From an uncultured Planctomycetia bacterium (GTDB lineage Bacteria; Planctomycetota; Phycisphaerae; FEN-1346; JAACEH01), in contig CAIYVX010000082.1 in assembly GCA_903929765.1 (NCBI GenBank), forward strand, positions 16,974-80,973: a stretch of DNA of 64,000 nucleotides, read 5' to 3'. Below are positions 34,030 to 64,000 of the stretch, piece after piece. Below the pieces are notes generated by a model. It was not told the DNA's origin. It worked only from the letters and a program-made list of their open reading frames with translations, and did not search any database. Numbering within the stretch: position 1 is the first letter of the stretch; each line of letters starts with the position of its first letter. The position numbers and the translations under genes are program-made.

Positions 34030-34147
34030 CGTCGCGCGCTTCGGCTCGTTTATATTCTTTCCCAGGCTTTGTTACCCCTCAAAAAATGCAGTTATTGTAC
34101 ACCTCATTCTATACCTGCCGCGCCTGACATTCAACGCGGCTGCTTCA

Positions 34148-34196
34148 CAGTGGCACGGGCATCTTGCCCGTGAGTCTTAGGGGCATCTTGCCCCTG
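34148..34196 (+). repeat. REP family A, copy 1 (double hairpin)
   Basis: CAGTGGCACGGGCATCTTGCCCGTGAGTCTTAGGGGCATCTTGCCCCTG is two 7-bp-stem hairpins (CACGGGC/GCCCGTG and AGGGGC/GCCCCT). The consensus recurs 8 times in the window. Confidence 0.7.
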
Positions 34197-34208
34197 GTTC
34201 TTCTTTTA

Positions 34209-35633
34209 TTATTGTTTCTTCTCTCCGGGTGCCACACTTTGAAGCCCCGGCTTTGCCGGGGCCAAAGTGTGTGCTTTGTCGCGCTCCTCGCTCTCCTCGA
34301 CAACCACCTTCGGCTCCGGGAACAACCACATCACCAGCCGCCCGTGATTCGACACGGCCGCAGCGGGCAATTCTACCGCCGAATTTCCGTCGAACCACCC
34401 GAACAGCACGCCCACGCCCTGCCGCACATATTGCTGCGCGACCCAGCGCATGGCCCGCCGCCTAAACGCATCCGCCGGCGCTTCCGCCGAAAACGCCGCC
34501 GCGTCGATCGAAACCGCCTCGCTCGTCGGCCGGTACACTTCGTCAACCAGCCCCATCCGCCACGCCCGGCCCGCCAGATAGCACCACGCATCCTCCAGCC
34601 GCGCCCCATCACCTAAACGCACTCCGGGCACACCCGATTGCACCCAAAACATTTTACCACCACTCGAAGGGTAGGTGCTTATATCCCACTCGCCAGCCTC
34701 AAAGGCCAGAATCAGACCAGGGGTAGCAGGAATGTTCTCCACCGACCATTCTCCGCCCTCGTGGCGATGAAGTATCACCCCTTCGTACATCACCCGGTCC
34801 GCCTCGGCCGCCACCAGCGGGCGCGGCTGCAACCGTGCCTTAAAGTACAGCGTCGCTGGACCTGCTCGGAGAGCCGTCACCGCCGCCAGATCTTCCACCA
34901 GGGCCTGACCCGTCGAGCCATCACGGGAAACGACCGAAACTGCATCCACCGAATACAGCGGTTTTTCAACCAGGGCCACGGCCCAGACCGCCCCACCCAA
35001 AGCCACAACAACCATCGCCGCGATCTTAATCCTATGCGAAAAAAGTTCTGCCACCAACGCCAGGCAAACCAGCACCGCCGTCACCGCCAGCGCCGGAATC
35101 AGAAAATGCCAAACGTCAGCCAACTGCCACGACCGCCCCTGAAACAACATCGTTGGAATCTGTCCTTTATTCTGATCCACATATCCAATCAAATCCGGCC
35201 GCACATGCGTCCGCGCCGCCAGACGGTCGAGCAAACTACCTGACGAAGCCGCACCCTGCCCTCCCAAGCTCGGCCTCAGTTTCGCAGGAGCATAGCTAAC
35301 CAACAACTTCCCTGCGGCGTCCAGCCCCTCGATGGCCGAAAGGTTCAGCGACCCGTCGAAATACCACGGCTCAAACGTCACGTCGCCCGTTTGCCGCGCC
35401 GGAATCAGCACGTCCAGCCGGTACTCGAAAAGTTGATTGGTTTTAATCCGCACCTGCCGGATGTCGGCCGCCGAAGTGTTCGCCAGTTGCAGCGCCACCG
35501 GCAGCTTCATCCCCGAAATTCCCACATCCGAGCCGGCGAAACGAACGTTCGCCCCCGTCTCAGCCCGCGCCTCCACACCCAACGCCGCCGAAAACATGAA
35601 AACCAACAGAACGACGAGCGGCAACTTTTTCAT
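34209..35633 (-). CDS. Hypothetical membrane/secreted protein
   Basis: The ORF has a signal peptide (MKKLPLVVLLVFMFSAALG) and two internal hydrophobic helices. I recognise no family. Confidence 0.5.
   Translation of the reverse strand: MKKLPLVVLLVFMFSAALGVEARAETGANVRFAGSDVGISGMKLPVALQLANTSAADIRQVRIKTNQLFEYRLDVLIPARQTGDVTFEPWYFDGSLNLSAIEGLDAAGKLLVSYAPAKLRPSLGGQGAASSGSLLDRLAARTHVRPDLIGYVDQNKGQIPTMLFQGRSWQLADVWHFLIPALAVTAVLVCLALVAELFSHRIKIAAMVVVALGGAVWAVALVEKPLYSVDAVSVVSRDGSTGQALVEDLAAVTALRAGPATLYFKARLQPRPLVAAEADRVMYEGVILHRHEGGEWSVENIPATPGLILAFEAGEWDISTYPSSGGKMFWVQSGVPGVRLGDGARLEDAWCYLAGRAWRMGLVDEVYRPTSEAVSIDAAAFSAEAPADAFRRRAMRWVAQQYVRQGVGVLFGWFDGNSAVELPAAAVSNHGRLVMWLFPEPKVVVEESEERDKAHTLAPAKPGLQSVAPGEKKQ
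34227..34273 (+). repeat. REP family H, copy 1
   Basis: GGGTGCCACACTTTGAAGCCCCGGCTTTGCCGGGGCCAAAGTGTGTG is a nested palindrome. It is near-identical to 63566-63611 and related to the repeats flanking RAYT-1. Confidence 0.7.
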
Positions 35634-35637
35634 GTCA

Positions 35638-37605
35638 TCACAAATCATAAGCCCGCTTCACCCTCAGTATTTCCGCCACGCTCCAGGCCTGAGCGAAACA
35701 GCCGCGCGGCCAGTGCGGCTCGTCCCCATCAAATATCTCCGCCACCGTGCCCAGCGTCCCCTGGTCCAACGTCGCCAGGGCATTGTCGATCACGCCCTGA
35801 GCCTCGCCGTGGGCCACAAACTCCGACTCCGCCGACGCCATCAGGGCATCGACATACGGCCCCAGCAGCCACGGCCAGACCGTCCCCTGGTGATACGCGA
35901 AATCCCGCTCGAACCAATTCCCGATGCACCGGCCCCGGTAATCCCGATCCTCGCGCGCGAGCGTCCGCAGGCCGCACGGCGTCAAAAGTTTCCGCCGCAC
36001 CGTCCCCACCACCGCCCGCGCCCGCTCGCCCGTCACCGGGGCAAAGGGCAGCGACACCGCGAAAAGCTGATTCGGCCGCACCCGGACATCCCGGTTCTTA
36101 CCGTCCACGCAGTCATAAAGGTAGCCGCCCTCAGCGTTCCAGAACGTCTCGCCGAAGGCCGCCGTCGTCCGAGCCCGCCCGCGCACCGCCTCGGGCAATT
36201 TCGCTTTCGTCGCCCACTTTTCGCCCCAGTCCGCCACGATCCCCAGCGCCGACAGCCACAGGGCGTTGATCTCCACCGCCTTGCCGCGCCGCTGCGTAAA
36301 GGGAACGCCCCCGTGCATCGCGTCCATCCAGGTCAGGGCGTGGCCGTCCTCGCCCGCCCAGATCAGCCCGTCGGTGTCCGCATGAATGTGGTGCCGCGTC
36401 CCCGAGTGGTAGCGCCGCACAATTTCCAGAATCGGCTTCCACAGCTTGTCGTGGACGAAGTCCAGGTCGCCCGTCGCCTGCCCATAGGCCCGCGCCGCCT
36501 GGATGAACCAGAGCGACGAATCCACAGAGTTATATGACAACTTCTTGTTGTCGTCCTCGAAGCGGTTCGGCATCATCCCTTCGTCAATGAGGCCGGCGAA
36601 AAGTTCCAGCACCGCCCGGGCCAGGTCGTGCCGCCCCGTCGCCAGGCACAGCCCCGGCAGCGCAACCATCGCGTCGCGGCCCCAGTCCGCGAACCACGGA
36701 TAACCCGCCAGAATGCTCGCCAGAGTCCGCTCCCGGCTCGGCCGTTCCACCAGGAACTGATCCGCCGCGATCACCAGCATCTCTTCACGCTGCCCGCGCG
36801 GCCCCGCCAGCCGTACCAGTTCCCGCCGCCGCGCCAGTTCTCCCTGACACGCCGCCGCGAACGTCAGCGCCGGTTCATCCGCCCCCAGACTCGCCGTCAG
36901 CACCACTTCCTGCCGCGCGTCCAGATCGACCGTCGCCGACCCGACGCGCAACAAATCTTCCACGTCGTCCTGCCCGCGCTCCGTCTCCACGCGATAGCAA
37001 ATCCCCTTGTACCAGATCGGCTCAACCATGATCTCCGCCCCGCCCGCACGAATGAAGAGATCCTGTCCCCCGACACCCGACACCCGCCAGCCCGCGTCCG
37101 CCGGCTCAACATTCAGCCCGTCGCGCCGCCCTTTCAACTCATGAAAACTCCGCATCGCCACAAACGGCGCGAGCACCAGCTTGGCCCCCGCCGGCGCCCC
37201 GGTCACCTGGTACTGAATCATCACGCAATTGGTCCGGTACACCATCAGGACGCGCTTCGTCACCACCGTTTCGCCGACCTGCCAGCGCCAGACCGGCAGC
37301 GGATCGAGCCGGAAGTCGAGCAGCCGCCGATTGCCATCCGGAAAAAATCCGTCGCGATATTCCGTTGTGTTGAGGTAATGTTCGCCCGACGGCAGGACCA
37401 GCATTTCGTCCAGGTGCGACAGCAGGACGTAACGATCCAGCGGCGGATTCAGCGCCGCCACCAAGAGGCCGTGGTACCGCCGCGTGTTGCACCCCACCAG
37501 GCTCGACGAGCAATACCCGCCCAGCCCGTTGGTCAGCAGAAACCCGCGCCGCAACGACCACTCCAAATCCTGAAGATTATCCGCCCCGGCCACAAACGTC
37601 CACAT
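35638..37605 (-). CDS. Glycogen debranching enzyme (archaeal-type GDE; amylo-alpha-1,6-glucosidase family)
   Basis: The 655-aa product combines an N-terminal GDE_N region with a C-terminal (alpha/alpha)6 catalytic domain whose motifs include GYPWFADWGRDAMVALPGL and WMDAMHGG. Confidence 0.8.
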   Translation of the reverse strand: MWTFVAGADNLQDLEWSLRRGFLLTNGLGGYCSSSLVGCNTRRYHGLLVAALNPPLDRYVLLSHLDEMLVLPSGEHYLNTTEYRDGFFPDGNRRLLDFRLDPLPVWRWQVGETVVTKRVLMVYRTNCVMIQYQVTGAPAGAKLVLAPFVAMRSFHELKGRRDGLNVEPADAGWRVSGVGGQDLFIRAGGAEIMVEPIWYKGICYRVETERGQDDVEDLLRVGSATVDLDARQEVVLTASLGADEPALTFAAACQGELARRRELVRLAGPRGQREEMLVIAADQFLVERPSRERTLASILAGYPWFADWGRDAMVALPGLCLATGRHDLARAVLELFAGLIDEGMMPNRFEDDNKKLSYNSVDSSLWFIQAARAYGQATGDLDFVHDKLWKPILEIVRRYHSGTRHHIHADTDGLIWAGEDGHALTWMDAMHGGVPFTQRRGKAVEINALWLSALGIVADWGEKWATKAKLPEAVRGRARTTAAFGETFWNAEGGYLYDCVDGKNRDVRVRPNQLFAVSLPFAPVTGERARAVVGTVRRKLLTPCGLRTLAREDRDYRGRCIGNWFERDFAYHQGTVWPWLLGPYVDALMASAESEFVAHGEAQGVIDNALATLDQGTLGTVAEIFDGDEPHWPRGCFAQAWSVAEILRVKRAYDL

Positions 37606-37661
37606 AGTGACCCCCAGTATACGCTACTGTTGGTATGGTGCAATAGAAGATGACAAATACA

Positions 37662-37710
37662 GGGTGCCACACTTTGTCCCGACCGCCTTTTGGTCGGGCA
37701 AAGTGTGTGG
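37662..37710 (+). repeat. REP family H, copy 2 (RAYT-1 flank)
   Basis: GGGTGCCACACTTTGTCCCGACCGCCTTTTGGTCGGGCAAAGTGTGTGG lies 18 nt downstream of the RAYT-1 stop. Confidence 0.75.
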
Positions 37711-37727
37711 TTGGTCTGCCGGAAACC

Positions 37728-38264
37728 TCAGACCGGAAGAATATCCATCTCTAAACCTTCATGTCGTTCGTACCACGCGGCACTACTCCAGCGCCAGTCC
37801 GCGACCGACTCGACCAGGCCTCGCCGCACCGGATTATTGTGAATGTAATTGAGCTTCTCATAGAGTTCTTCCCGGCTTGTGATATTCCTATCATAACCAC
37901 CTCCTCCCAGCCAGAAGTGCGGCCTTCCCTGAGCGTCGGTGATCCGAGAGAGAATGGGGGCGTTCAACTCGCGCCACCGAGCGAGAACATCTTTCGAGAA
38001 CGGGCGCTTCAGGGCGTGAAGAATAGCCGTGACGGTAAAGTCAGGGAGGTCAGGTGTCAGAAGCAGGTGGAAATGCTCCGGCATAACGACCCAGGCGTAG
38101 AGGGCAAAGTCCGTCTGCCGCCGGACAAAAGACAACCGGTCTACGAAGGCGTCCTTGACGCGATCACTCTTGAACAGCGGCAACCGGCCGTAGCAGGAAC
38201 AAGTCAGGTAGCGAACATGGTTTGGCAACTCGTAGCGTTTAAGAGTTCGACGATTGTCGCTCAT
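37728..38264 (-). CDS. REP-associated tyrosine transposase (RAYT; IS200/Y1-transposase-like HUH enzyme)
   Basis: MSDNRRTLKRYELPNHVRYLTCSCYGRLPLF...LYAWVVMPEHFHLLLTP (HuH motif)...HFWLGGGGYDRNITSREELYEKLNYIHNNPVRRGLVESVADWRWSS (Tyr motif). It is collinear with E. coli RayT/YafM as I recall it. The start is the internal ATG; the upstream part of the track ORF is just the REP translated. Confidence 0.8.
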   Translation of the reverse strand: MSDNRRTLKRYELPNHVRYLTCSCYGRLPLFKSDRVKDAFVDRLSFVRRQTDFALYAWVVMPEHFHLLLTPDLPDFTVTAILHALKRPFSKDVLARWRELNAPILSRITDAQGRPHFWLGGGGYDRNITSREELYEKLNYIHNNPVRRGLVESVADWRWSSAAWYERHEGLEMDILPV

Positions 38265-38324
38265 GACGGGGCATCTCGACCAATCGGCACGAAGTTTATT
38301 CGGAAGATTTACTTGCGGTCCGAA

Positions 38325-38371
38325 CACACACTTTGCCCGGCATACTGCCGCCGGGACAAAGTGTGGCACCC
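38325..38371 (-). repeat. REP family H, copy 3 (RAYT-1 flank, inverted)
   Basis: CACACACTTTGCCCGGCATACTGCCGCCGGGACAAAGTGTGGCACCC is the reverse complement of the copy-2 pattern. The two copies form inverted REPs around RAYT-1. Confidence 0.75.
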
Positions 38372-38403
38372 TCGTTCCAAGGATCCCAAACAATCAGCTG
38401 AAA

Positions 38404-39579
38404 CTACCTCTTCAGCCGCTGCCGGATGTTGTCCAGGACGTTCATGTAGTTGATGTAGGAATCGTACGGTGAATCGTACGGATTGAAGTACTTATGAACG
38501 TCCCCGTCCGCGAACCACTTCGTGCACATGTAATAGAAATGGTCCGACGTCAGCAGCCGCCGCCAGTCGTGCAGCAGGTTCGGATCAGCCTTGTCCTTGA
38601 TCTGCTTCTCCAGCCGGTAGACTTCGTGCAGGGCGTTGGACTGCATGGCGTTGCCGAGCCACGCCGACAGGTCGCGCTCGATGTCCGCCCACGATATCAT
38701 GTGCGGCACGTCCAGCGTCCCCTCCGGCTCGTAGCGGTCCGTCGCCTCCGAGAGGGTCAGAAAATTATTATCCGGGTGCTGCAGCACGATCTCCGGCAAC
38801 TTCTGCATGAACTGGAAAATCCCCGTGTCTTCCCACTGGTGTTCGCCGAAGGTCTCATAGTCCATAAACAGGTTGACCATGTAGCCGTTGCCGTTGACCT
38901 GGTTGACCCACTGCCCGAACTTCTCCGCCGTCAGCGGCCACTCGTTCCACTGGCGGTTCGAGAAGCGGAAGGCGATGTCGTCGCTCAGGCGATAATTCTT
39001 CAGCAGCAGCTTGATGTTGCGCGTGCCCAGCGGCCGGTACATGAACGTCGGGCTGCGGTAGCCCAGAATGTGGTCCGCCCCCTCGGCCAGGATGCCCTTG
39101 AAGCCCATCTCCTCGATGTAGTGCGCCAGATCATTATTATAAATAAGCTCGGTGTTCCGGAAAACCTGCGGCTTGTAGCCGAACACTTCCTGCATCTTGG
39201 CCGCGTGCGAAACCACCTGCTGCCGGAATTCTTCCCGGCTGTACAGGAAGGCCAGCGAGTGGTAATAGGTCTCGTTCAGAAATTCCACGCAACCGGTGGC
39301 CGCCAGTTGCTTGAAGCTCTCGATCACCTCCGGGCAATAGGCCAGGAACTGATCGACCGCGATCCCGGTGATCGAATAGCTGCACCGGAACCGTCCCTGG
39401 TTGCGGCGGATCAGATCCAGCATCACCTGGTTCGCCGGCAGGTAGCACTTGGTGGCCACCTTCCGACAAATTTCCGCATTCTTGTAGTCATCGAAATAAT
39501 ACGGATCGGTGTCAAAGACGGAATAGCGGCGCAACCGGTACGGCTGATGCACTTGGAAATAAAAACACACTGAGGCCAT
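38404..39579 (-). CDS. Glycoside hydrolase family 57 protein (alpha-glucan-acting; amylase/branching-type)
   Basis: The N-terminus CFYFQVHQPYRL and the 391-aa length fit the GH57 catalytic domain as recalled. It sits in a glycogen-gene context. Confidence 0.7.
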   Translation of the reverse strand: MASVCFYFQVHQPYRLRRYSVFDTDPYYFDDYKNAEICRKVATKCYLPANQVMLDLIRRNQGRFRCSYSITGIAVDQFLAYCPEVIESFKQLAATGCVEFLNETYYHSLAFLYSREEFRQQVVSHAAKMQEVFGYKPQVFRNTELIYNNDLAHYIEEMGFKGILAEGADHILGYRSPTFMYRPLGTRNIKLLLKNYRLSDDIAFRFSNRQWNEWPLTAEKFGQWVNQVNGNGYMVNLFMDYETFGEHQWEDTGIFQFMQKLPEIVLQHPDNNFLTLSEATDRYEPEGTLDVPHMISWADIERDLSAWLGNAMQSNALHEVYRLEKQIKDKADPNLLHDWRRLLTSDHFYYMCTKWFADGDVHKYFNPYDSPYDSYINYMNVLDNIRQRLKR

Positions 39580-39616
39580 ATCGTCGTTTCGTCCTTCCCC
39601 CGCAAGTTGTCCTTAC

Positions 39617-39666
39617 CAGTGGCACGGGCGTCCCGCCCGTGAGTCCCACGGCCATCTTGGCCGTGG
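39617..39666 (+). repeat. REP family A, copy 2
   Basis: CAGTGGCACGGGCGTCCCGCCCGTGAGTCCCACGGCCATCTTGGCCGTGG lies between the GH57 and glycogen-synthase genes. Confidence 0.7.
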
Positions 39667-39687
39667 TTGTTTTTGTTTTTTGCGCCA

Positions 39688-41261: not shown

Positions 41262-42278
41262 TTAACTTGTCAGCCGTGCGAACTCCGCCGCGTAGTACGT
41301 CAGAATAATGTCCGCCCCGGCCCGACGAATACTCGTCAGCGTCTCACGAATCGCCGCGCCGCGGTCGATCCACCCCGCCCGCGCCGCCGCTTCGATCATC
41401 GCGTACTCACCGCTCACCTGGTACGCCGCCACCGGCACGCCAAACCGCTGTTTCACCCGCCAGATCACGTCCAGATACGCCAGGGCCGGCTTCACCATCA
41501 CGATGTCGGCGCCTTCCTGCAAATCGTTTTCCACCTCACGCAATGCTTCGTTCCCATTGCGATAATCCATCTGGTACCCGCGCCGGTCGCCGAACTGCGG
41601 CGGACTTTCCGCCGCCTCCCGGAACGGCCCGTAAAAACTCGACGCGAACTTCGCCGCATAAGACATGAGCGGCACGTGGCTCAGGGACGCCGCATCCAGC
41701 GCCTGGCGAATCGCCCCCACCCGCCCGTCCATCATGTCGCTCGGCGCCACCACGTCCGCCCCCGCACGGGCGTGGGCCAGCGCCATCGCCGCCAGGAGCG
41801 GCAACGTCTGATCATTATCTATGACGCGCCGCCCGCCGCGCTCCACCGGCACGCCGCAATGGCCGTGATCGGTATATTCGCACAGGCAGACGTCCGTAAT
41901 CACCGCCAGGTCCGGCAGCGCCTTCTTGAGCGCCCGCACCGCCCGCGGAATCAGCCCGTCCGGATCGACCGCGCTCGTCGCCCCGGCGTCCTTGCGGTCC
42001 GGTATCCCGAACAGAATCACCGCCGGCACGCCCGCCGCCGCCACCTCGCCCGCCCGCTCCACCAGCGTGTCCACCGACCACTGGAACTGCCCCGGCATCG
42101 ACGAAATCGCCCGCCGCTCCCCCCGCCCTTCCCGCACAAACAGCGGCTGCACCAAATCCTTCGCCTCCAGCGTCGTCTCCGCCACCATCTCGCGCAGCAC
42201 TGCCGTGTCCCGCAGCCGCCGCAGACGTGTTATCGGAAAAGCCACGATCCATTCCTCCGCGTGCCGCTTCTTTTTCAC
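41262..42278 (-). CDS. hemB: Porphobilinogen synthase (delta-aminolevulinate dehydratase)
   Basis: PITRLRRLR, DVCLCEYTDHGHCG (Zn site), the active-site lysines and YQVSGEYAM match HemB. The track's start is a GTG lying inside the family-B repeat, so the exact start is uncertain. Confidence 0.93.
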   Translation of the reverse strand: MKKKRHAEEWIVAFPITRLRRLRDTAVLREMVAETTLEAKDLVQPLFVREGRGERRAISSMPGQFQWSVDTLVERAGEVAAAGVPAVILFGIPDRKDAGATSAVDPDGLIPRAVRALKKALPDLAVITDVCLCEYTDHGHCGVPVERGGRRVIDNDQTLPLLAAMALAHARAGADVVAPSDMMDGRVGAIRQALDAASLSHVPLMSYAAKFASSFYGPFREAAESPPQFGDRRGYQMDYRNGNEALREVENDLQEGADIVMVKPALAYLDVIWRVKQRFGVPVAAYQVSGEYAMIEAAARAGWIDRGAAIRETLTSIRRAGADIILTYYAAEFARLTS

Positions 42279-42325
42279 CCCTCTCCCTTGAGGGGAGAGG
42301 GTAGGGTGAGGGTGTTGCTGTTTCT
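42268..42325 (+). repeat. Palindromic element family B, copy 1
   Basis: CTTCTTTTTCACCCCTCTCCCTTGAGGGGAGAGGGTAGGGTGAGGGTG has a core inverted repeat CCCTCTCCC/GGGAGAGGG. It overlaps the hemB 5' end. Confidence 0.7.
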
Positions 42326-43631: not shown

Positions 43632-43667
43632 CTGGGTGGCATGGCCGCTTGCGGCCATGCGCATAAC
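43632..43667. repeat. Palindromic element family D (variant)
   Basis: CTGGGTGGCATGGCCGCTTGCGGCCATGCGCATAAC carries the GGGTGGCATGGC...GCCATG hairpin shared with 46233-46271 and 58073-58112. Confidence 0.55.
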
Positions 43668-46174: not shown

Positions 46175-46232
46175 GGTTTCCCCGGACGCGACTCGCACGT
46201 CGTCTCTTTACCCCTCTCCCCATAAGGGAGGA

Positions 46233-46271
46233 CGGGTGGCATGGCGGCGTCGTTTGCCGCCATGTTTCGCC
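46233..46271. repeat. Palindromic element family D, copy 1
   Basis: GACGGGTGGCATGGCGGCGTCGTTTGCCGCCATGTTTCGCC has the stem CATGGCGGC/GCCGCCATG. Confidence 0.65.
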
Positions 46272-46295
46272 AGTGCCCGTTCTTCGGGTGCCGCC

Positions 46296-46352
46296 GTTTC
46301 TTCACCCCTCTCCCTCGGGAGAGGGTGGCCCGAAGGGCCGGGTGAGGGGTTA
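46296..46352 (+). repeat. Palindromic element family B, copy 2
   Basis: GTTTCTTCACCCCTCTCCCTCGGGAGAGGGTGGCCCGAAGGGCCGGGTGAGGGGTTAG is near-identical to the copy inside valS (56208-56272). Confidence 0.7.
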
Positions 46353-46489
46353 GCTCACCACCTCAAAAACTTCACCAGAACGCCATCATACGCGAGGACA
46401 TGCCCTGCCCGCGCCCTAAGCCCGACCAAAGTATTCCGAATCGCCCCATTTTTCAAGTAAAAACGCTGTGCGTACAGCCTTTGTTGTTC

Positions 46490-46514
46490 GTAGGGACAGG
46501 GCTCTGCCCTGTCC
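46490..46514 (+). repeat. GTAG-type hairpin element family G, copy 1
   Basis: GTAGGGACAGGGCTCTGCCCTGTCC is identical to 63476-63500 and begins with the GTAG tetranucleotide typical of classical REPs. Confidence 0.65.
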
Positions 46515-46543
46515 AGCCGTTTCTTTTGCCGTTGCCGCTTCAC

Positions 46544-46592
46544 CGTGGCACGGGCTTCCCGCCCGTGAGTCGCAGGGGCATCTTGCCCCTGT
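46544..46592 (+). repeat. REP family A, copy 3
   Basis: CGTGGCACGGGCTTCCCGCCCGTGAGTCGCAGGGGCATCTTGCCCCTGTG is present, and its flanking TGCCGTTGCCGCTTCAC... context also matches copy 8. Confidence 0.7.
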
Positions 46593-46670
46593 GCCGTTGT
46601 TCTTGCCGTTGCCGCGTGTAGGGGCAACCCGTGGGTCGCCCGTTGCTGTTGTTTGTTGCTTCTCTCTAGG

Positions 46671-46985
46671 CCCCCGCGCCATCGCCCTCCACTCCGCTCT
46701 CCCCCAGCCGCGAAGCGGCGAAAGTTTTTAGCCGGGCGGCGTCAGCCCCCGGTCCCCGCCGCAAACACATTCTTCTTCTTTTTCTTCTTATTTCTCTTCT
46801 CAGCCGCAGCGCGGCGTCTGATAATAACCACGCGGCGCAAGCCCGTGGTTCCCAACGCGCCGACCCGGCTTTTTTCTTCTTCTTTTTCTTTTCCCAGCCC
46901 CCTCCCCCCGCGCCATCCCCCTCCCCTCCGCTCACCCCCAGCCGCGAAGCGGCGAAAGTTATTAGCCGGGTGGCATAAGCCAGCC
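46671..46985 (+). repeat. Two ~77-nt direct repeats separated by polypyrimidine tracts
   Basis: 46671-46747 is CCCCCGCGCCATCGCCCTCCACTCCGCTCTCCCCCAGCCGCGAAGCGGCGAAAGTTTTTAGCCGGGCGGC. 46903-46985 is the same sequence with 8 substitutions. Between them lie TTCTTCTTCTTTTTCTT tracts and a GC hairpin, with no credible CDS. Confidence 0.6.
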
Positions 46986-47920: not shown

Positions 47921-47922
47921 AT

Positions 47923-48764: not shown

Positions 48765-48785
48765 GATGAACGACAAAAGAAGCAA

Positions 48786-48839
48786 CACCCTCACCCTACC
48801 CTCTCCCCTCAAGGGAGAGGGGTGAAGAAGAAAAAGAAG
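48786..48839 (-). repeat. Palindromic element family B, copy 3
   Basis: CACCCTCACCCTACCCTCTCCCCTCAAGGGAGAGGGGTGAAGAAGAAAAAGAAG is the reverse complement of copy 1. It supplies the GTG and lysine codons of the next gene's annotated start. Confidence 0.7.
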
Positions 48840-53445: not shown

Positions 53446-53482
53446 GTGGGTGAAATGGTCTGGCGCAGACAGGCCATGAAAG
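53446..53482. repeat. Hairpin element family E, copy 1
   Basis: GTGGGTGAAATGGTCTGGCGCAGACAGGCCATGAAAG has a ~9-bp stem (CATGGTCYG/CRGGCCATG); a near-identical copy lies at 61696-61731. Confidence 0.6.
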
Positions 53483-53586
53483 AATAACTGTTCGCAAATA
53501 TTGTAGGGTGCGTGCTTGCACGCACCAAAATTAAAAGCTGTTTTCCGCTTGCTGTTGCCGTCGTTTCTTTTATTGAATTTTCTTCT

Positions 53587-53622
53587 TTTGAAGCCCCCAG
53601 CACTACTGGGGGATGCTGTTTC
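53587..53622. repeat. Hairpin element family F, copy 1
   Basis: TTTGAAGCCCCCAGCACTACTGGGGGATGCTGTTTC contains the CCCCCAG/CTGGGGG hairpin. It is paired with family E again at 61565-61731. Confidence 0.6.
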
Positions 53623-53647: not shown

Positions 53648-54133
53648 ATGACCAAAACTTCTTTCACCATCCGCCCCGCCACTCCCGCCGACGCCGACGC
53701 CGTCGTCGCCATGTGGCAGATCATGGTGGACCAGCACCAGGCTTACGATCGCCTGCGCTGGCGCATGAAGCCCAACGCCCCCGCCCTTTGGCGCAAGTTC
53801 TTTCTGGAAGTCCTGGCCAAAAAAGATTCCTTCGCCCTGGTCGCCGTCAACGCCACTGGTCAACCCATTGGCTATCTCGTCGCCAACATCGCCGCTCCGC
53901 CGCCGATCGTGGCCATCCGCTCCCGCGGCGATATCGGCGATCTCTTTGTCCGAAAAGAATATCGCCGCCACGGTCTCGGCCGCCGACTAATGAACCACGC
54001 CGTCAAAATCATGAAGAGCCGCGGCGCCGAATATATCAGCCTCTACGTTGCCGCCTCGAACCGCAGCGCCGTCCGTTTCTACAAAAACCTCGGCCTGAAA
54101 CCGCTCGTGCTGCAGATGTGCAATAAGTTATAA
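53648..54133 (+). CDS. GNAT-family N-acetyltransferase
   Basis: The 161-aa product carries the acetyl-CoA-binding motif RRHGLGRRLM and the GNAT beta-strand pattern. Confidence 0.85.
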   Translation: MTKTSFTIRPATPADADAVVAMWQIMVDQHQAYDRLRWRMKPNAPALWRKFFLEVLAKKDSFALVAVNATGQPIGYLVANIAAPPPIVAIRSRGDIGDLFVRKEYRRHGLGRRLMNHAVKIMKSRGAEYISLYVAASNRSAVRFYKNLGLKPLVLQMCNKL

Positions 54134-54139
54134 TGAAAC

Positions 54140-54186
54140 GTGCCACGGCGGGTCTTGTCCCGCCGTGCGAATGCGGGCCGACGCTC
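54140..54186. repeat. Hairpin element family C, copy 1 (immediately upstream of valS)
   Basis: GTGCCACGGCGGGTCTTGTCCCGCCGTGCGAATGCGGGCCGACGC has the stem CACGGCGGG/CCCGCCGTG. Its partner copy is 66 nt downstream of the valS stop. Confidence 0.65.
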
Positions 54187-54207
54187 GCTAAAAGGATAAT
54201 TGTCCCG

Positions 54208-57200
54208 ATGACCCAACCCGAAACCAACTCCACCAACCCCACCGACCTTCCCACCCAATACGACCCCAAGCTCTTCGAAAAGGAAGTTTACGCCTTCTGG
54301 GAATCTCATAACTATTTCCACGCCGACCCCGCGCGCGGCGGAAAACCCTACGCCATAGCCATCCCGCCCCCCAACGTCACTGCCGCCCTCCACCTCGGCC
54401 ACGCCCTCAACAACACCCTTCAGGACATCCTCGTCCGCTGGCGCCGCCAGCAGGGCTACAACACCCTCTGGATGCCCGGCACCGACCACGCCGGCATCGC
54501 CACCCAGGCCGTCATCGAAAAACGTCTCCTCGCCAACGAAGGCCTGCGCCGCAAAGACCTCGACCCCGACCCCGCCGTCGCCCGCACCAAGTTCGTCGCC
54601 CGCGTTCAGGCCTGGAAAGACGAGTACGAAGCCCGCATCCTCGGCCAGCTCAAAGCCATGGGCTGCTCCTGCGACTGGGACCGCACCCGCTTCACCATGG
54701 ACGAAACCTGCGCCGCCGCCGTCCGCGAAGCCTTTTTCCGCCTCTTCAAAGACGGCCTCATCTATCGCGGCAAACGCCTCGTCAACTGGGACCCCGCCAC
54801 CCAGACCGTCCTCGCCGACGACGAAGTCGAACACGAAACCGTCCAGGGAAATTTCTATTACCTCCGCTACCCGCTGGCTGAAGCCGTTGCTTTACCCAGT
54901 GACACGGGCATCTTGCCCGTGAGTCCCACGGGCGTCCCGCCCGTGGCCGCCGTTTCTTCTTCACCCAGTGGCACGGGCGTCCCGCCCGTGAGTGCCACGG
55001 GCATCTTGCCCGTGGAAGACTTGCCTGTAATCAAGCGTCAGGGTGCCAACCTGCCTCACTGGACTCAATCCGGCGCAACCTATGCCATCACGTTCCGGTT
55101 GGCCGATTCTCTCCCCGCCCAAGTCATTGAATCATGGAAGCATCACCGGGAAGAAATCGAACAAAGAGCCAACTCCCAAGGCCGCAAGATGACCTGGCAG
55201 GAGCGTAAGGAACTCCACCAACTGTACGAATCCCGCATCGACAGCATGCTGAACACCGGTCTTGGGGCGTGTTATCTCAACAATCCGGAAGTAGCCGAAA
55301 TCGTCCAGGACGCACTGAAACATTTCCACGGCGAGCGATACGAACTGATCGCCTGGTCACTCATGCCCAACCACATCCATGCCGTTCTCCGTCCTCTGGG
55401 AGAACACCATCTCGCGGACATCATCCACTCCTGGAAGTCCTTCACGGCTAAGCAAGCCAACAAAATTCTTGGACGAGAAGGACAGTTCTGGATGGAGGAA
55501 TACTACGACCACCTGATTCGCGACGAAGAGGATTTTGGCCATGCGGTAATGTACGCGATCAGCCATCCGGAGCGCGCCGGCCTGGCCGACTGGCCGTGGG
55601 TCGGACTGCAAAAAACGGCACAGGGGCAAGATGCCCCTGCGACTCACGGGCAAGATGCCCGTGCCACTGTTATAACACACATCACCGTCGCCACCACCCG
55701 ACCCGAAACCATGCTCGGCGACACCGCCGTCGCCATGAACCCCCGCGACCCCCGCGCCGCCGCTCTCGTCGGCCAGATGGTTCGCCTCCCCATCGTCGGC
55801 CGCCTCATCCCCATCATCGCCGACGAACACGTCGTCCTCCCCAACCCCGAAGGCGACGAAAAAGCCCGCTTCTCCACCGGCTTCCTCAAAGTCACACCCG
55901 CCCACGACCCCAACGACTGGGACATCGGCCAGCGCCACAAACTCCCGGCCATCAACGTCATGGCCCCCGACGGCTCAATCTCCGACAAGCACGGCTGGAC
56001 CGACTGGGACGCCGTCAAAAATCCTGATGTCGAAAAATTCATTGGCCTCGACCGCTTCATAGCCCGAAAGAAGATCGTCGACTGGTTCGGCGAAAACAAT
56101 CTTCTCGAAGAAGTCCGCCCCTACGCCCACGAAGTCGGCCACTCCTACCGCAGCCATGTCCCCATCGAACCCTACCTCTCCGACCAGTGGTTCATCGCCG
56201 TGAAAAAGCCGTTTCTTCTTCACCCCTCTCCCTCGGGAGAGGGTGGCCCTTCAGGGCCGGGTGAGGGGTTGAGGCCCTTGCCCGTTCCGACCGCGCCCGA
56301 ACTGATCCCCGGCACCGACGTGCCAGTTAATTCTTTAGCCGGCTTGGCCATCAAGCCGCTCCTCGACGGCAAACTCAAATTCGTCCCCGAGCGCTACGCC
56401 CGCAACTACCAGAACTGGCTCGAAAACCTTCGCGACTGGCCCATCTCCCGCCAACTCTGGTGGGGACACCGAATTCCAGTGTGGCAAGGAATCACTGAAT
56501 TTGGATCGAAGGTGTTTGAGGGCAAGGACACAGCAAAATCTCCATTCGGAATAGCCGGCGTAGAAGGAATACACATACAGCACAGAGATGAGGCTGGAAA
56601 ACTGGGACTGTATGCCTCGGTACCGCCCGGCCATCCAGACAAGGAAAAGAAACTGGAGGAGGCTGGCCTAACCCGCGACCCCGACGTCCTCGACACCTGG
56701 TTCTCTTCCGGCCTCTGGCCCATCTCAACCCTCGGTTGGCCGGAACAAACCGACGCGCTGAAATTCTATTACCCCACCTCCGTCCTCTGCACCGCCCGCG
56801 AAATCATCACCCTCTGGGTCAGCCGCATGGTCATGTTCGGCGAATATTTCCAGCACGACCTCCCCTTCCGCACCGTCTACATCCACGCCATGATTCAGGA
56901 CGGCGAAGGCCGCAAAATGTCCAAGAGCCTCGGCAACGGCATCGACCCCCTCGACATCATCGACTCTCACGGGGCCGACGCCATGCGCTTCACCATCGCC
57001 GCCATGACCACCGAAACTCAGGACGTCCGCATGCCGGTCGAAACCCTCACCCTCCGCGACGGCCGCACCGCCAACTCCAGCCCCAAGTTCGACCTCGGCC
57101 GCAACTTCTGCAACAAGCTCTGGAACGCCTCCCGCTTCGCCTTCATGAACCTCGCCGAACTTTCCCCCGAGCCGTTCGACCGCGCAAAAATGCTCCTCGA

Positions 57201-58053
57201 AGACCGCTGGATTCTCTCCCGCCTCACCACCACCGTCGAAGCCGCCACACAGGCCCTCGAAAAGTTCCAGTTCCACGACGCCACCGACGTGATCTACTCT
57301 TTCTTCTGGAACGATTTCTGCGACTGGTACCTCGAAATCACCAAGCCGCGCATGCGCGACGCCGCCACCAGAGCCGTCCCCCAACGCATCCTCGCCTACG
57401 CCCTCGACCGTCTCCTGCGGCTCCTCCACCCCTTCGTCCCGCACATTACCGAGCACCTCTGGACCCACTTCGCCCGCCTCGTCCCCGACCGCTCGCTCGA
57501 CTCTGCGGCCCCCGCCCCACCCGCCGAAGCCTGCATCATCGCCCTTTGGCCCGAGCCGGTCGCCGCTTTTTACGCGCCCCAGGCCGAAACCGATTTCGCC
57601 CTCGTCCAGGCCGTCATCCGCGCCATCCGCAACATCCGTTCGCGCATGAACATCGCCCCGCGCGTCCCGCTCCGCGCCGTCATCCGCTCGAGCGCCGCCG
57701 CCACCGCCCGCCTCTCCGCCGCCGCCGACACCATCCGCCACCTCGCCGCCCTCGAATCTCTTGAGGCCGACCCTGCCGCCGAAAAGCCCAAAGCCTCCGC
57801 CGCCGAAATCGTCGAAGGCCTGGAAGTCTTCGTCCCCCTCGCCGGCGTCATCGACCTCGCCACCGAGCGCGACCGCCTCGCCAAACTCTCGGCCGAGAAG
57901 GATAAGGCCCTCGACAGCGTCCGCAAAAAACTCTCGAACGAAAACTTCGTCGCCCGCGCCAAGCCCGAAATCGTCGCCAGCGAACGCGACCGCGCCGCCA
58001 AGCTCGAATCCGAACTCGCCGCCCTCACAGCCAACATGAAAGATTTGGAATAG
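54208..58053 (+). CDS. valS: Valyl-tRNA synthetase carrying two in-frame repeat-derived insertions (one is a complete REP-RAYT-REP unit)
   Basis: The HIGH (HLGH), KMSKS, TTRPETMLGD (CP1), WCISRQ-like (WPISRQLWWGHRIP) and anticodon-binding regions are present, as is the C-terminal coiled coil. The ORF is uninterrupted for 1282 codons from the chosen ATG, versus about 880-1000 aa typical. Confidence 0.93.
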   Translation: MTQPETNSTNPTDLPTQYDPKLFEKEVYAFWESHNYFHADPARGGKPYAIAIPPPNVTAALHLGHALNNTLQDILVRWRRQQGYNTLWMPGTDHAGIATQAVIEKRLLANEGLRRKDLDPDPAVARTKFVARVQAWKDEYEARILGQLKAMGCSCDWDRTRFTMDETCAAAVREAFFRLFKDGLIYRGKRLVNWDPATQTVLADDEVEHETVQGNFYYLRYPLAEAVALPSDTGILPVSPTGVPPVAAVSSSPSGTGVPPVSATGILPVEDLPVIKRQGANLPHWTQSGATYAITFRLADSLPAQVIESWKHHREEIEQRANSQGRKMTWQERKELHQLYESRIDSMLNTGLGACYLNNPEVAEIVQDALKHFHGERYELIAWSLMPNHIHAVLRPLGEHHLADIIHSWKSFTAKQANKILGREGQFWMEEYYDHLIRDEEDFGHAVMYAISHPERAGLADWPWVGLQKTAQGQDAPATHGQDARATVITHITVATTRPETMLGDTAVAMNPRDPRAAALVGQMVRLPIVGRLIPIIADEHVVLPNPEGDEKARFSTGFLKVTPAHDPNDWDIGQRHKLPAINVMAPDGSISDKHGWTDWDAVKNPDVEKFIGLDRFIARKKIVDWFGENNLLEEVRPYAHEVGHSYRSHVPIEPYLSDQWFIAVKKPFLLHPSPSGEGGPSGPGEGLRPLPVPTAPELIPGTDVPVNSLAGLAIKPLLDGKLKFVPERYARNYQNWLENLRDWPISRQLWWGHRIPVWQGITEFGSKVFEGKDTAKSPFGIAGVEGIHIQHRDEAGKLGLYASVPPGHPDKEKKLEEAGLTRDPDVLDTWFSSGLWPISTLGWPEQTDALKFYYPTSVLCTAREIITLWVSRMVMFGEYFQHDLPFRTVYIHAMIQDGEGRKMSKSLGNGIDPLDIIDSHGADAMRFTIAAMTTETQDVRMPVETLTLRDGRTANSSPKFDLGRNFCNKLWNASRFAFMNLAELSPEPFDRAKMLLEDRWILSRLTTTVEAATQALEKFQFHDATDVIYSFFWNDFCDWYLEITKPRMRDAATRAVPQRILAYALDRLLRLLHPFVPHITEHLWTHFARLVPDRSLDSAAPAPPAEACIIALWPEPVAAFYAPQAETDFALVQAVIRAIRNIRSRMNIAPRVPLRAVIRSSAAATARLSAAADTIRHLAALESLEADPAAEKPKASAAEIVEGLEVFVPLAGVIDLATERDRLAKLSAEKDKALDSVRKKLSNENFVARAKPEIVASERDRAAKLESELAALTANMKDLE
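54897..55669 (+). mobile_element. REP-RAYT-REP composite embedded in frame in valS
   Basis: Two tandem family-A REP doublets (54897-54946, 54966-55015) are followed by a RAYT-like HUH domain (~55012-55605: LPHWTQSGATYAITFRL...AWSLMPNHIHAVL...FWMEEYYDHLIRDEEDFGHAVMYAISHPERAGLADWPWVG) and one inverted family-A REP (55616-55669). The region has no stop codon and no ATG; it is contiguous with the flanking ValRS sequence. Confidence 0.8.
56208..56272 (+). repeat. Palindromic element family B, copy 4, in frame inside valS
   Basis: CCGTTTCTTCTTCACCCCTCTCCCTCGGGAGAGGGTGGCCCTTCAGGGCCGGGTGAGGGGTTGAGG is translated as PFLLHPSPSGEGGPSGPGEGLR. It sits within a ~40-aa insertion relative to the E. coli ValRS region DQWFV...FVPKQY. 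Confidence 0.75.
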
Positions 58054-58072: not shown

Positions 58073-58112
58073 ACGGGTGGCATGGCGGCCGTCGTTTGCC
58101 GCCATGTTTCGC
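58073..58112. repeat. Palindromic element family D, copy 2
   Basis: GAACGGGTGGCATGGCGGCCGTCGTTTGCCGCCATGTTTCGCC starts 20 nt after the valS stop. Confidence 0.65.
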
Positions 58113-58118
58113 CCCGGG

Positions 58119-58160
58119 TGTGCCACGGCGGGCTTGCCCCGCCGTGCGAATGCCCGCCAA
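58119..58160. repeat. Hairpin element family C, copy 2 (immediately downstream of valS)
   Basis: GTGTGCCACGGCGGGCTTGCCCCGCCGTGCGAATGCCCGCCA matches copy 1 at 54140-54186. Confidence 0.65.
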
Positions 58161-58215
58161 CCCCGGTTGCTCTAAAACGTGTTTTGATTCTTCTTTTTCT
58201 CTTTCCGCAACTCCC

Positions 58216-59607: not shown

Positions 59608-59628
59608 GTTTACATCCTTTCCTTGTTA

Positions 59629-59677
59629 CAGTGGCACGGGCGTCTCGCCCGTGAGTCGCAGGGGCATCTTGCCCCTG
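59629..59677 (+). repeat. REP family A, copy 7
   Basis: CAGTGGCACGGGCGTCTCGCCCGTGAGTCGCAGGGGCATCTTGCCCCTG lies between the histidine-kinase and response-regulator genes. Confidence 0.7.
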
Positions 59678-59697
59678 CTTACTGTTTTTGTTTCTTC

Positions 59698-59735
59698 AAT
59701 TTTTAATTTTTCATTTTTAACTTTTAATTTCCCTT
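59698..59735. repeat. AT-rich element J, copy 2
   Basis: CAATTTTTAATTTTTCATTTTTAACTTTTAATTTCCC overlaps the histidine-kinase stop codon. Confidence 0.5.
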
Positions 59736-61475: not shown

Positions 61476-61564
61476 CGATTATGTCGGCAGGAAACAACCT
61501 CGGAATGATGCAAAAATACAACATTTTCCGCTGTTAGTCAAGTCGCCGCCCAGCTTTTCTTGCT

Positions 61565-61600
61565 TTTGAAGCCCCCTGCACTGCTGGGGGATGCTGTTGT
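61565..61600. repeat. Hairpin element family F, copy 2
   Basis: TTTGAAGCCCCCTGCACTGCTGGGGGATGCTGTTGT. Confidence 0.6.
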
Positions 61601-61611
61601 TGCCGCTTCAC

Positions 61612-61661
61612 CGTGGCACGGGCGTCCCGCCCGTGAGTCGCAGGGGCATCTTGCCCCTGTG
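61612..61661 (+). repeat. REP family A, copy 8
   Basis: CGTGGCACGGGCGTCCCGCCCGTGAGTCGCAGGGGCATCTTGCCCCTGTG. Confidence 0.7.
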
Positions 61662-61695
61662 CCGTTGCCGTTGTTTCACCGCCAATCCTTAACTG

Positions 61696-61731
61696 TGAGT
61701 GGCATGGTCCGGCGCAGACGGGCCATGAAAG
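61696..61731. repeat. Hairpin element family E, copy 2
   Basis: GTGAGTGGCATGGTCCGGCGCAGACGGGCCATGAAAGG. Confidence 0.6.
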
Positions 61732-61802
61732 GAGGTCGCCGAAAGTGGAACTGTTTCTGTTGTTTCTGTTGTTTTTGCCGTTCCTGAAGTCTGGCGTCAC
61801 TG

Positions 61803-61864
61803 TCCTCAACCGTCCTCAGAACGTCCTCAGAACGTTGACACGCCCCACCGCCCCCGCCTATACT
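61803..61864 (+). promoter_or_regulatory. Candidate purE promoter with three tandem 11-nt direct repeats
   Basis: GTCCTCAACCG / GTCCTCAGAACG / GTCCTCAGAACG (61803-61834) precede TTGACA (61835-61840), an 18-nt spacer and TATACT (61859-61864). The SD AAGGAG lies 7 nt before the purE ATG. Confidence 0.35.
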
Positions 61865-61905
61865 GTGCCGATTCTCAATCGGACCTTTTTGTAAGGAGCC
61901 AATCC

Positions 61906-62409: not shown

Positions 62410-62410
62410 C

Positions 62411-63460
<1,050 letters not shown>

Positions 63461-63475
63461 TGCCGTTGTTTTTTT

Positions 63476-63500
63476 GTAGGGACAGGGCTCTGCCCTGTCC
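63476..63500 (+). repeat. GTAG-type hairpin element family G, copy 2
   Basis: GTAGGGACAGGGCTCTGCCCTGTCC is followed by a related GTAGGGGCAGAGTTCATCTCTGCCCTGC at 63523-63550. Confidence 0.65.
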
Positions 63501-63565
63501 GGCAGTTGCTGTTGTTTCTTTCGTAGGGGCAGAGTTCATCTCTGCCCTGCTGTTTCTTTTTTTCC

Positions 63566-63611
63566 GGGTGCCACACTTTGAAGCCCCGGCCCTGCCGGGG
63601 CCAAAGTGTGT
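63566..63611 (+). repeat. REP family H, copy 4
   Basis: GGGTGCCACACTTTGAAGCCCCGGCCCTGCCGGGGCCAAAGTGTGT is near-identical to copy 1 at 34227-34273. Confidence 0.7.
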
Positions 63612-63690
63612 TCTTTGCTTCGCTCTACAATCCCCAATCGCCGCAACCCATCCTACTTCCGCCCGCCTCATTTTCTGCTTCTTTCGCTTT

Positions 63691-63742
63691 TACATTTTTA
63701 ATTTTTCATTTTTAATTTTTCATTTTGCATTTTTCATCTCCC
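63691..63742. repeat. AT-rich element J, copy 3
   Basis: TACATTTTTAATTTTTCATTTTTAATTTTTCATTTTGCATTTTTCATCTCCC encodes the last codons and stop of trpC. Confidence 0.5.
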
Positions 63743-64000
63743 GCACTTTCCCCGCCCGATCCTTCGCCCGCATCAGCGTCTCGCCCACCAGCACCGCCTG
63801 CGCCCCCACATTCAGCACGCGCCGCACTTCCGCCGCCCCCGCAATCCCGCTCTCGGCCACCAGCACCCGATCCCCCGGCACCCGCGCCGCCAGCCGCTCC
63901 GTCGTCGCCAGGTCCACCACGAACGTCCGCAAATCCCGGTTATTCACCCCCACCAGAGTCGCCCCCGAAGCCACCGCCCGCTCCAATGCCTCCGCCCCAT
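63720..64000 (-). CDS. trpC: Indole-3-glycerol-phosphate synthase, C-terminal part (5' end beyond the window)
   Basis: LVGVNNRDLRTFVVDLATTERLAARVPGDRVLVAESGIAGAAEVRRVLNVGAQAVLVGETLMRA matches the TrpC C-terminus. The ORF runs off the window edge. Confidence 0.8.
   Translation of the reverse strand, partial: GAEALERAVASGATLVGVNNRDLRTFVVDLATTERLAARVPGDRVLVAESGIAGAAEVRRVLNVGAQAVLVGETLMRAKDRAGKVREMKNAK

Follow-up and report, generated by a model that had tools for sequence, protein, structure and literature searches.

Palindromic repeats and two RAYT transposases in an uncultured planctomycete, one RAYT lying in frame within the valyl-tRNA synthetase gene

What serves the short palindromic repeats that crowd the second half of a 64,000-nucleotide stretch of DNA from an uncultured Planctomycetia bacterium, and how do they stand to the genes among which they lie? 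The stretch (hereafter the window) is part of contig CAIYVX010000082.1 of NCBI GenBank assembly GCA_903929765.1 (positions 16,974 to 80,973, forward strand). A sequence-only reading of it had described at least eight repeat families that resemble repetitive extragenic palindromic (REP) elements, with cognate REP-associated tyrosine transposases (RAYTs) present. Our results support the core of that proposal, and we consider it probable that the second half of the window carries several REP families, that two of these (H and A) have cognate RAYTs, and that the RAYT of family A is nested in frame in valyl-tRNA synthetase (ValRS). That the second RAYT is nested in valS, and that REPs are inserted in frame into genes, had been missed.

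The valS gene (54208-58053, plus strand) codes for a ValRS of 1281 amino acids with intact HIGH (as HLGH) and KMSKS motifs. It lies in an open reading frame (ORF), 54133-58053, that is stop-free over 1306 codons and in which Pfam places a Y1_Tnp domain at residues 387-458, in the same frame as ValRS. This domain belongs to a REP-RAYT-REP cassette of 786 nt, i.e. 262 codons (54886-55671, plus strand), which sits in frame between YPLAEA and ITHITVATTRPET. The cassette consists of two family A doublets in the plus orientation (54899-54945, translated as DTGILPVSPTGVPPV, and 54968-55014, translated as GTGVPPVSATGILPV), the RAYT-2 domain (55030-55608, plus strand), which lacks start and stop codons of its own, and a single A doublet in inverted orientation (55621-55667, minus strand, translated as GQDAPATHGQDARAT); its ends are inverted copies of CAGTGGCACGGGC. 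In translation, the host sequence ...FYYLRYPLAEA is followed by the A-copy peptides VALPSDTGILPVSPTGVPPV...SGTGVPPVSATGILPV, by RAYT-2 as EDLPVIKRQGANLPHW...MPNHIHAVL...EEYYDHLIRDEEDFGHAVMYAISHPERAGL...WVGL, by QKTAQGQDAPATHGQDARATV from the inverted A copy, and then by host ITHITVATTRPETMLGD... again. The cassette sits in the CP1 domain of ValRS, where insert-free homologues have a four-residue beta-turn, and seven residues separate it from the Thr-rich ATTRPET editing motif that follows.

RAYT-2 has the features of a TnpA_REP-type protein, with the HUH motif as NHIHAV and the catalytic tyrosine in VMYAISHP. Its best PDB sequence match is Escherichia coli TnpA_REP (4ER8), and the modelled fold points in the same direction: in an AlphaFold2 model of ValRS residues 241-520, the RAYT core has predicted local distance difference test (pLDDT) values of 80-98, the REP-coded flanks being below 50, and the top Foldseek match in the PDB is 4ER8_A, which is TnpA_REP bound to a REP hairpin (E 1.5e-7; TM score 0.63 on the target), followed by IS200/IS605 transposases (matches 2-30). 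The REP-encoded flanks are predicted to be disordered, low-confidence Gly/Pro/Thr-rich linkers in the protein; in the DNA they remain intact hairpins. RAYT-2 would be made as an internal ValRS domain, tethered by linkers that the REPs encode.

The arrangement is far from unique to the window. A RAYT occupies the same valS position in 117 of the best 120 matches to the window ValRS (52-66% identical), that of the cultured Anaerobaca lacustris among them, where the RAYT-bearing protein is annotated simply as valine--tRNA ligase. In the three exceptions the RAYT lies near the C terminus, between REP peptides (P0100), the motif is placed differently (P0086), or there is no RAYT (P0081). The HUH histidines are conserved in all 117 nested copies and the catalytic tyrosine in 116, the sequence YYDHLIRD is nearly invariant, and mean pairwise identity within the nested set is 60% for the RAYT domain versus 74% for the ValRS core. 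A methionine before the RAYT domain is not conserved (24 of 115 only). The flanks hold one to three REP-peptide units per homologue in differing reading frames (GVPP.., GILP.. or GFQPV on the left; GQDARAT, GRDALAT or GKMPVP on the right), with the ORF always open. Perfect A-type hairpins flank the RAYT in three other genomes (L118, L103 and L119), with stems CACGGGC, CAGGGGC and CACGGCC that are mutually compensatory, and L119 has dispersed A-type copies nearby as well. An insert-free relative (L120) has no A-type hairpins, and in two genomes RAYT-bearing valS stands in its native rho-valS-lspA synteny.

These observations bear on whether the cassette remains in the protein at all. It could be removed before ValRS works, by protein splicing, RNA splicing or DNA excision, or the valS of the window could be a pseudogene with a backup copy elsewhere. 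Such a reading fits the intein-like lifestyle of a selfish enzyme at a conserved site of an essential protein, and the clean gain or loss seen between RAYT-bearing and RAYT-free alleles of about 95% identity; moreover, the Y1 transposases of IS200/IS605 elements excise precisely. However, Y1_Tnp is the sole Pfam domain of the insert, Hint and intein domains being absent, and Rfam finds no intron. The residues at the junctions come from the REPs and vary, and conserved splice residues (Cys/Ser/Thr or His-Asn) are missing there. ValRS keeps its catalytic motifs, and its core is conserved to the same degree as that of insert-free homologues. More than 100 genomes maintain an open frame across REP flanks that differ in number and frame, which would be needed only if the insert is translated. 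An intein or intron was rejected on the basis of the missing domain, the missing intron match and the variable junctions, and removal of the cassette in any of these ways, or a dead valS, appears very unlikely. The cassette shares with inteins that carry homing endonucleases its in-frame position at a conserved site and its patchy distribution over occupied and empty alleles, but, in contrast to them, it lacks splice residues and seems to remain part of the mature protein, attached by disordered linkers.

The patchiness becomes apparent when the homologue search is made with the insert removed. The two ValRS cores closest to that of the window (69% identity) then prove to be insert-free, and the insert is present in about one-fifth of the best 120 core matches; on a neighbour-joining tree of 219 cores its presence or absence changes state 54 times, an upper-range estimate because the tree is crude. 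Insert-free alleles read YPLVEPVEI-DGQR-IEHVTVATTRPET at this point and in occupied alleles exactly those four residues are replaced, the conserved DGxx turn being kept by empty alleles and missing from occupied ones. Pairs of alleles with and without the RAYT reach about 95% core identity (P0071/P0474), with six further pairs at 93-94%, and have clean junctions and identical flanking strands. The identities of ValRS core and RAYT domain correlate weakly (r 0.34). A single ancient insertion followed by strict vertical descent is not supported, in view of this correlation, the patchy tree and the restriction of the DGxx turn to empty alleles. Near the insert, the window core is relatively closer to RAYT-bearing lineages than to its overall nearest relatives, a mosaic signal that is modest (Fisher p 0.01-0.1) and comes from a region picked post hoc.

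When valS genes were scanned with a position weight matrix built from the left flank and head of A, the top match in the L120 valS, which is empty, fell on the HVTVAT codons (ATGTCACAGTGGCCA) beside the insertion point, and in L117 and L118 on the SDQW codons (TCCGACCAGTGGTAC) beside a second loop with REP insertions; the scan was post hoc and these sites are not top in every valS gene. The host codons that resemble the REP A head are ...CACAGTGGCC... for HVTVAT (L120:10706-10720) and ...GACCAGTGGT... for SDQW (valS nt ~1870-1900 in L117 and L118; ~56104-56118 in the window). As a lead rather than a result, host codons that mimic the REP head (CACAGTGGCC for VTVAT, GACCAGTGG for SDQW) may guide invasion.

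Nesting extends to other hosts. A HMMER search with the RAYT-2 domain returned 9863 representative proteins at E <= 0.001, 770 of them at E <= 1e-30, and among the best 150 of this list 67 of 148 top matches have the RAYT internal to a protein of at least 400 amino acids. The hosts include alanyl-tRNA synthetase (AlaRS), class I synthetases, UvrA, DinG-like and SNF2-like helicases, MetH, a MurC-Ddl fusion, IspG, CarB, isochorismate synthase, GH38, and Type ISP, Eco57I and other methylase/restriction enzymes. Every protein that was checked individually has host domains before and after the RAYT. The HUH histidines and the tyrosine are invariant in 63 RAYTs nested in hosts other than ValRS. Nested RAYTs of the same clade, each between REP-derived peptides, are found at L019:2187-2849 and L085:6650-7216 and in P0254, P0257, P0274 and P0327; the hosts in this set are SNF2-like and DinG-like helicases, UvrA, AlaRS, MurC-Ddl and MetH.

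REPs also enter genes in frame without a transposase. A plus-strand family B copy at 56216-56270 (feature 56200-56290) adds 19 codons to the ValRS loop AVKK-VPVNSLAG, which is 41 residues long in the window versus a modal 22, the length seen in 109 homologues. A-type REP peptides occur in that loop and in a second ValRS loop in other genomes, and 14 of 219 homologues have REP peptides outside the main valS site. Taken together, the ValRS and other hosts lead us to propose, tentatively and as a possibility that we rate somewhat below even, a widespread RAYT clade with an intein-like life but without splicing: translated in-frame REP-RAYT-REP cassettes would occupy surface loops of essential or large proteins (ValRS, AlaRS, LeuRS-type synthetases, UvrA, MetH, MurC-Ddl, IspG, CarB, DinG-like helicases, restriction-modification enzymes) and would repeatedly have invaded, or been exchanged into, the valS beta-hairpin tip.

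The other transposase, RAYT-1, is free-standing (37728-38264, minus strand; 178 amino acids) between the genes for glycogen debranching enzyme and GH57, and is one of two Y1_Tnp matches in the window ORFs, the other being the residues inside valS. It scores 100.3 bits against NCBIfam REP_Tyr_transpos (NF047646; cut-off 80), its best PDB sequence match is also 4ER8, and it is only 28% identical to RAYT-2. Inverted family H hairpins bracket it, at 37664-37712 (plus strand, downstream) and 38320-38368 (minus strand, upstream). Each RAYT of the window is thus flanked by its own inverted REPs, RAYT-1 by H and RAYT-2 by A, as are their counterparts in relatives.

These pairings hold elsewhere. A scan for the 23-nt A hairpin GGCACGGGCRTCYYGCCCGTGAG over one genome per species gave at least 116 loci, in metagenome-assembled genomes (MAGs) of Planctomycetota, Verrucomicrobiota, Acidobacteriota, Armatimonadota, Lentisphaerota and Myxococcota, and all five RAYTs in the A loci listed are of the RAYT-2 type. 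The outer stem of H, scanned against metagenomes, gave at least 120 loci; all three RAYTs in the H loci listed are of the RAYT-1 type (43-65% identity) and adjoin the hairpin, and H-type hairpins also occur there as plus/minus pairs. The association of A and H with one RAYT type each, which the sequence-only reading had put forward as a check, is borne out among these loci, and, as each family is present in more than 115 other contigs, neither is window-local. The repeats therefore behave as REPs with cognate RAYTs, a conclusion that the sequence comparisons support for H with RAYT-1 and for A with RAYT-2. MAGs from six or more phyla share an identical GGCACGGGCRTCYYGCCCGTGAG hairpin, and the RAYT-2-type proteins there are only 40-65% identical; REP A is better conserved than its transposase.

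As to the repeats themselves, a direct-repeat search, self-BLASTN and fuzzy matching recovered the families where they had been described, with the same copy numbers for A (8), B (4), D (3), E (2), F (2) and G (three plus one degenerate copy); all copy numbers given here are counts inside the window rather than genome-wide. Five copies had been claimed for H, of which four were recovered, plus a slightly decayed H-variant hairpin (CACACCTTG...CAAGGT; 31130-31172, plus strand). Like REPs in general (imperfect palindromes of 20-50 nt), the repeats are short, recur many times and lie mainly outside genes. The view that they fill intergenic gaps holds for most, but three A copies and one B copy are in frame in valS, and H and D copies form the ends of ORFs.

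Family A is a doublet of two hairpins with 7-8 bp stems and a GTGG head. Outside valS it is found, always on the plus strand, at 34150-34196 (intergenic), 39619-39665 (where the second stem has the compensatory variant CACGGCC/GGCCGTG), 46545-46591, 59631-59677 (between the histidine kinase and response regulator genes) and 61613-61659. In both hairpins the heads and loops (RTCYY) point one way, making it a direct doublet rather than the inverted doublet of a REPIN. The other copies of B are at 42268-42319 (plus strand), abutting the hemB start codon, 46298-46351 (plus strand; a branched hairpin) and 48781-48832 (minus strand). The predicted GTG start of the hemB ORF falls in the left flank of B (42268-42278). 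Those of D, all on the plus strand, are at 43634-43662 (a variant hairpin, GTGG-CATGGCCGC, at the beginning of the predicted aspartate kinase ORF), 46234-46271 and 58075-58113 (downstream of valS); the first of these, as a hairpin at 43639-43660, falls in codons 2-9 of that ORF. The remaining plus-strand copies of H are at 34228-34275 and 63567-63614. The former equals the C-terminal ~20 codons of the minus-strand ORF 34209-35648, coding for its predicted last ~20 residues (34209-34278).

Family G, with a GTAG head, has a hairpin at 46490-46520 (plus strand) and a tandem pair at 63476-63553 (plus strand; copies at 63476 and 63523), and its degenerate copy is at 46618. A further family, which we named K, has two plus-strand copies, GTGC-CACGGCGGG at 54140-54174, just upstream of the valS start, and 58120-58153, downstream of the valS stop beside the D copy; these direct copies are 94% identical and bracket valS on both sides. 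Plus-strand hairpins of E (53455-53482; other copy 61704-61731) and F (53578-53620; other copy 61555-61598) do occur together at two sites, as had been noted. The suggestion that they are parts of one composite unit was rejected, since the order is opposite at the two, with E then F at 53.4 kb and F, A, E at 61.6 kb. The three hotspots that had been named, 46,230-46,650, 61,565-61,735 (the F-A-E cluster) and 63,476-63,611 (the G-G-H cluster), were all confirmed.

The repeats counted as at least eight families are real, but A, D, E, H and K all have the head GTG(G/C)CA(C/T), with GTAG confined to G, and this common head reduces the eight to fewer super-families. The GTAG/CGTC foot of the super-families of Di Nocera et al. 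(2013) is absent from all five. The pair taken as family C proved not to be a REP family: the 77-nt repeats at 46671-46747 and 46905-46981 are two minus-strand copies of Acido-Lenti-1 RNA (Rfam RF01687), one at 46706-46752 (41.8 bits; gathering score 37) and one at 46940-46969 (27.8 bits, E 5e-4, without the first stem). The Acido-Lenti-1 pair shares a 969-nt gap with the largest REP cluster, and accounts for the '91% identical' 77-nt repeat. tRNA and Rfam scans of the window found just two tRNAs and one Acido-Lenti-1 match above the gathering score. An origin of the repeats from tRNA, rRNA or a known RNA is ruled out by these scans. Their being fragments of one insertion sequence (IS) was likewise rejected, given two RAYTs at 28% identity and no multiple full-length copies.

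The palindromes are well beyond chance. A degenerate pattern of the A hairpin has 16 matches in the window versus 0.01 expected from shuffles; the 64 kb hold 13 perfect hairpins whose stems are 9 bp or longer, each of which is a repeat copy located at 39.6-63.5 kb; and, when the proposed check of secondary structure was made, all families folded as stable single-stranded DNA (ssDNA) hairpins (z-scores -2.2 to -7.8) except the degenerate G copy at 46618. About 30 elements occupy about 12 of the 14 larger gaps (>=80 nt; 3447 nt in all) of the second half. The first half has similar intergenic space (2985 nt in 11 gaps of >=80 nt), and the skew between the halves therefore does not come from lack of room. 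The statement that the first 34 kb have no repeats is nearly correct, the H-variant at 31130-31172 being an exception. Next to this variant, a small CxxCH (cytochrome c-like) ORF (31222-31587, minus strand) ends ...AAGVPPVAKP, which is possibly a decayed in-frame remnant of family A.

Copies are nearly identical with their flanks counted: 68 of 69 nt for A (46545-46591 and the 61.6 kb copy), 51 of 52 for B (48781-48832 and the 42.3 kb copy) and 52 of 55 for H by self-BLASTN. Strains also differ: a contig from a second sample (L122), 99.4% identical across the GH57 gene, has at the orthologous site just downstream of it a different spacer and H-variant hairpin (L122:2357-2445 versus window 38317-38405), with a compensatory stem change (CACACCTTG...CAAGGTGTG) that the window has at 31.13 kb; this contig ends short of the RAYT-1 position. 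Near identity together with the strain polymorphism supports recent turnover, in agreement with the recent spread that had been proposed. Contigs assembled from short reads of the same organism are interrupted at a B copy and an H copy, as might occur were the repeats a local duplication or an assembly artefact. That explanation is extremely improbable, however: an assembly made independently from a different sample matches 8970 nt of the window at 99.97% identity, A and H copies and RAYT-1 included; the A and H hairpins recur in the other contigs described above; and the copies in the window are scattered among unrelated genes.

Recent turnover also bears on another reading, in which the hairpins are selected regulatory or structural elements of the host (terminators, mRNA stabilisers or sites for nucleoid proteins), and the RAYT in ValRS is exapted or an inert relic, unlinked to A. 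Several A copies have T-rich tails that fit the pattern of intrinsic terminators on the plus strand, such regulatory roles are known for E. coli REPs (PMC3733652), and A. lacustris retains its nested RAYT despite decayed flanking hairpins and the absence of A hairpins in 23 kb around it. However, terminator-like sites are not enriched over shuffles (16 versus 12.4±3.8 and 16 versus 10.7±3.4) and are antisense to the flanking genes, and a terminator function was rejected on these two grounds. Conservation of HUH and tyrosine in 116-117 of 117 nested ValRS copies and in the 63 RAYTs of unrelated hosts, the perfect inverted A hairpins around the RAYT domain in several genomes, and the signs of recent movement further make this reading unlikely, and we prefer that of REPs served by cognate RAYTs.

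Pfam scans show that the gene set is mostly on the minus strand and of housekeeping type, including genes for glycogen debranching enzyme, GH57, glycogen synthase, hemB, aspartate kinase, an apgM-like mutase, homoserine dehydrogenase, a queD-like protein, a pterin-binding protein, valS, a sigma-54 response regulator with its kinase, purE and an mtnA-like protein. The AT-rich J motif of the earlier description corresponds to ATGCAAAATGAAAAATTAAAAAT on the minus strand, at 32644-32705, 59686-59733 and 63667-63742, with 26 nt identical between two sites; at 32.7 kb it codes for the N terminus MEEGKMQNEKLKII of gene 31634-32704, and at 63.7 kb it is a mini-ORF, MQNEKLKMKN and a stop codon, next to a REP cluster.

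Comparison with known systems helps to place the repeats. Like the REP/BIME elements of E. coli, they are short, GC-rich hairpins whose 5' foot is a conserved tetranucleotide and, like TnpA_REP, the two RAYTs are HUH/Y1 transposases between their own inverted REPs, with 4ER8 the best match for both in sequence and in fold; unlike in E. coli, A, D, H and K are headed GTGG or GTGC, A is direct, and RAYT-2 is an in-frame internal domain of ValRS with an extra ~55-residue helical insertion after strand 1. The REPIN-RAYT systems of Pseudomonas and Enterobacteria (Bertels and Rainey) similarly comprise non-autonomous hairpins served by a single RAYT, with long persistence and near-identical copies, but in the classical REPIN two inverted REPs make up a single long hairpin, RAYTs have been described as genes in their own right, with neither fusion nor in-frame nesting mentioned in the RAYT papers searched, and the A hairpin, in contrast, is common to several phyla. 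Di Nocera et al. (2013) reported GTAG/CGTC REPs, some of them inside ORFs, and cited the RPEs of Rickettsia (PMC3733652), in-frame palindromes in ORFs that stay functional. In architecture, the ValRS loops that hold B or A-type peptides and the H copy that closes ORF 34209-35648 parallel these, but with RPEs only a short repeat enters the host protein, whereas here a whole transposase does so with its REP flanks. IS200/IS605 elements share the Y1 HUH fold and hairpin ends handled as ssDNA; unlike them, and unlike an autonomous element of that type, the window has no tnpB among the ORFs scanned with Pfam and no multiple identical full-length copies, the short hairpins being the amplified unit.

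Several points weigh against our interpretation. The direct doublets of A are not the inverted ones of classical REPINs; A, D, H and K are without the canonical GTAG/CGTC head; and RAYT-2, at 69.7 bits (E 2e-19), is below the 80-bit cut-off of NCBIfam REP_Tyr_transpos. No transposase was identified for families B, D, E, F, G and K, and none of these families was seen in the comparison loci from other genomes. A second, uninterrupted valS may be present elsewhere in the genome, of which one window was seen, and an internal non-AUG start may give separate translation of RAYT-2; production of the fusion protein and catalysis by RAYT-2 are argued from sequence and by analogy.

With these points in mind, we envisage that the nested RAYT-2, by analogy with E. 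coli TnpA_REP, may still nick and join A-type ssDNA hairpins, and that this activity would carry A doublets into gaps between genes and, now and then, into gene loops that tolerate them. Nesting in an essential ORF would shield the transposase from decay by nonsense and frameshift mutations, which would explain its persistence.

The kind of system, REPs with RAYTs, is already known; the intein-like nested and presumably translated REP-RAYT-REP cassette is the new part. A nested, in-frame or fused RAYT, including one with valyl-tRNA synthetase, was not found described in the literature searched, which covered few subscription journals, and an earlier description is possible. RAYT surveys have discarded "unexpectedly long proteins" (PMC6006769), a practice by which the nested class would have been missed.

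The long persistence of RAYTs and REPs that are single-copy and vertically inherited is an open question in the REPIN/RAYT literature, to which nesting in an essential gene suggests a testable answer, i.e. that purifying selection on the host keeps the transposase ORF intact. If true, this would be a new case of a mobile-element enzyme as a domain of a housekeeping protein, and one in which REP hairpins can act as protein linkers. It also follows that aminoacyl-tRNA synthetases, UvrA, MetH and other proteins that are longer than expected in Planctomycetota, Verrucomicrobiota and Acidobacteriota are not necessarily assembly errors. Since Anaerobaca lacustris is in culture and carries the ValRS::RAYT fusion, experiments on such proteins are possible.

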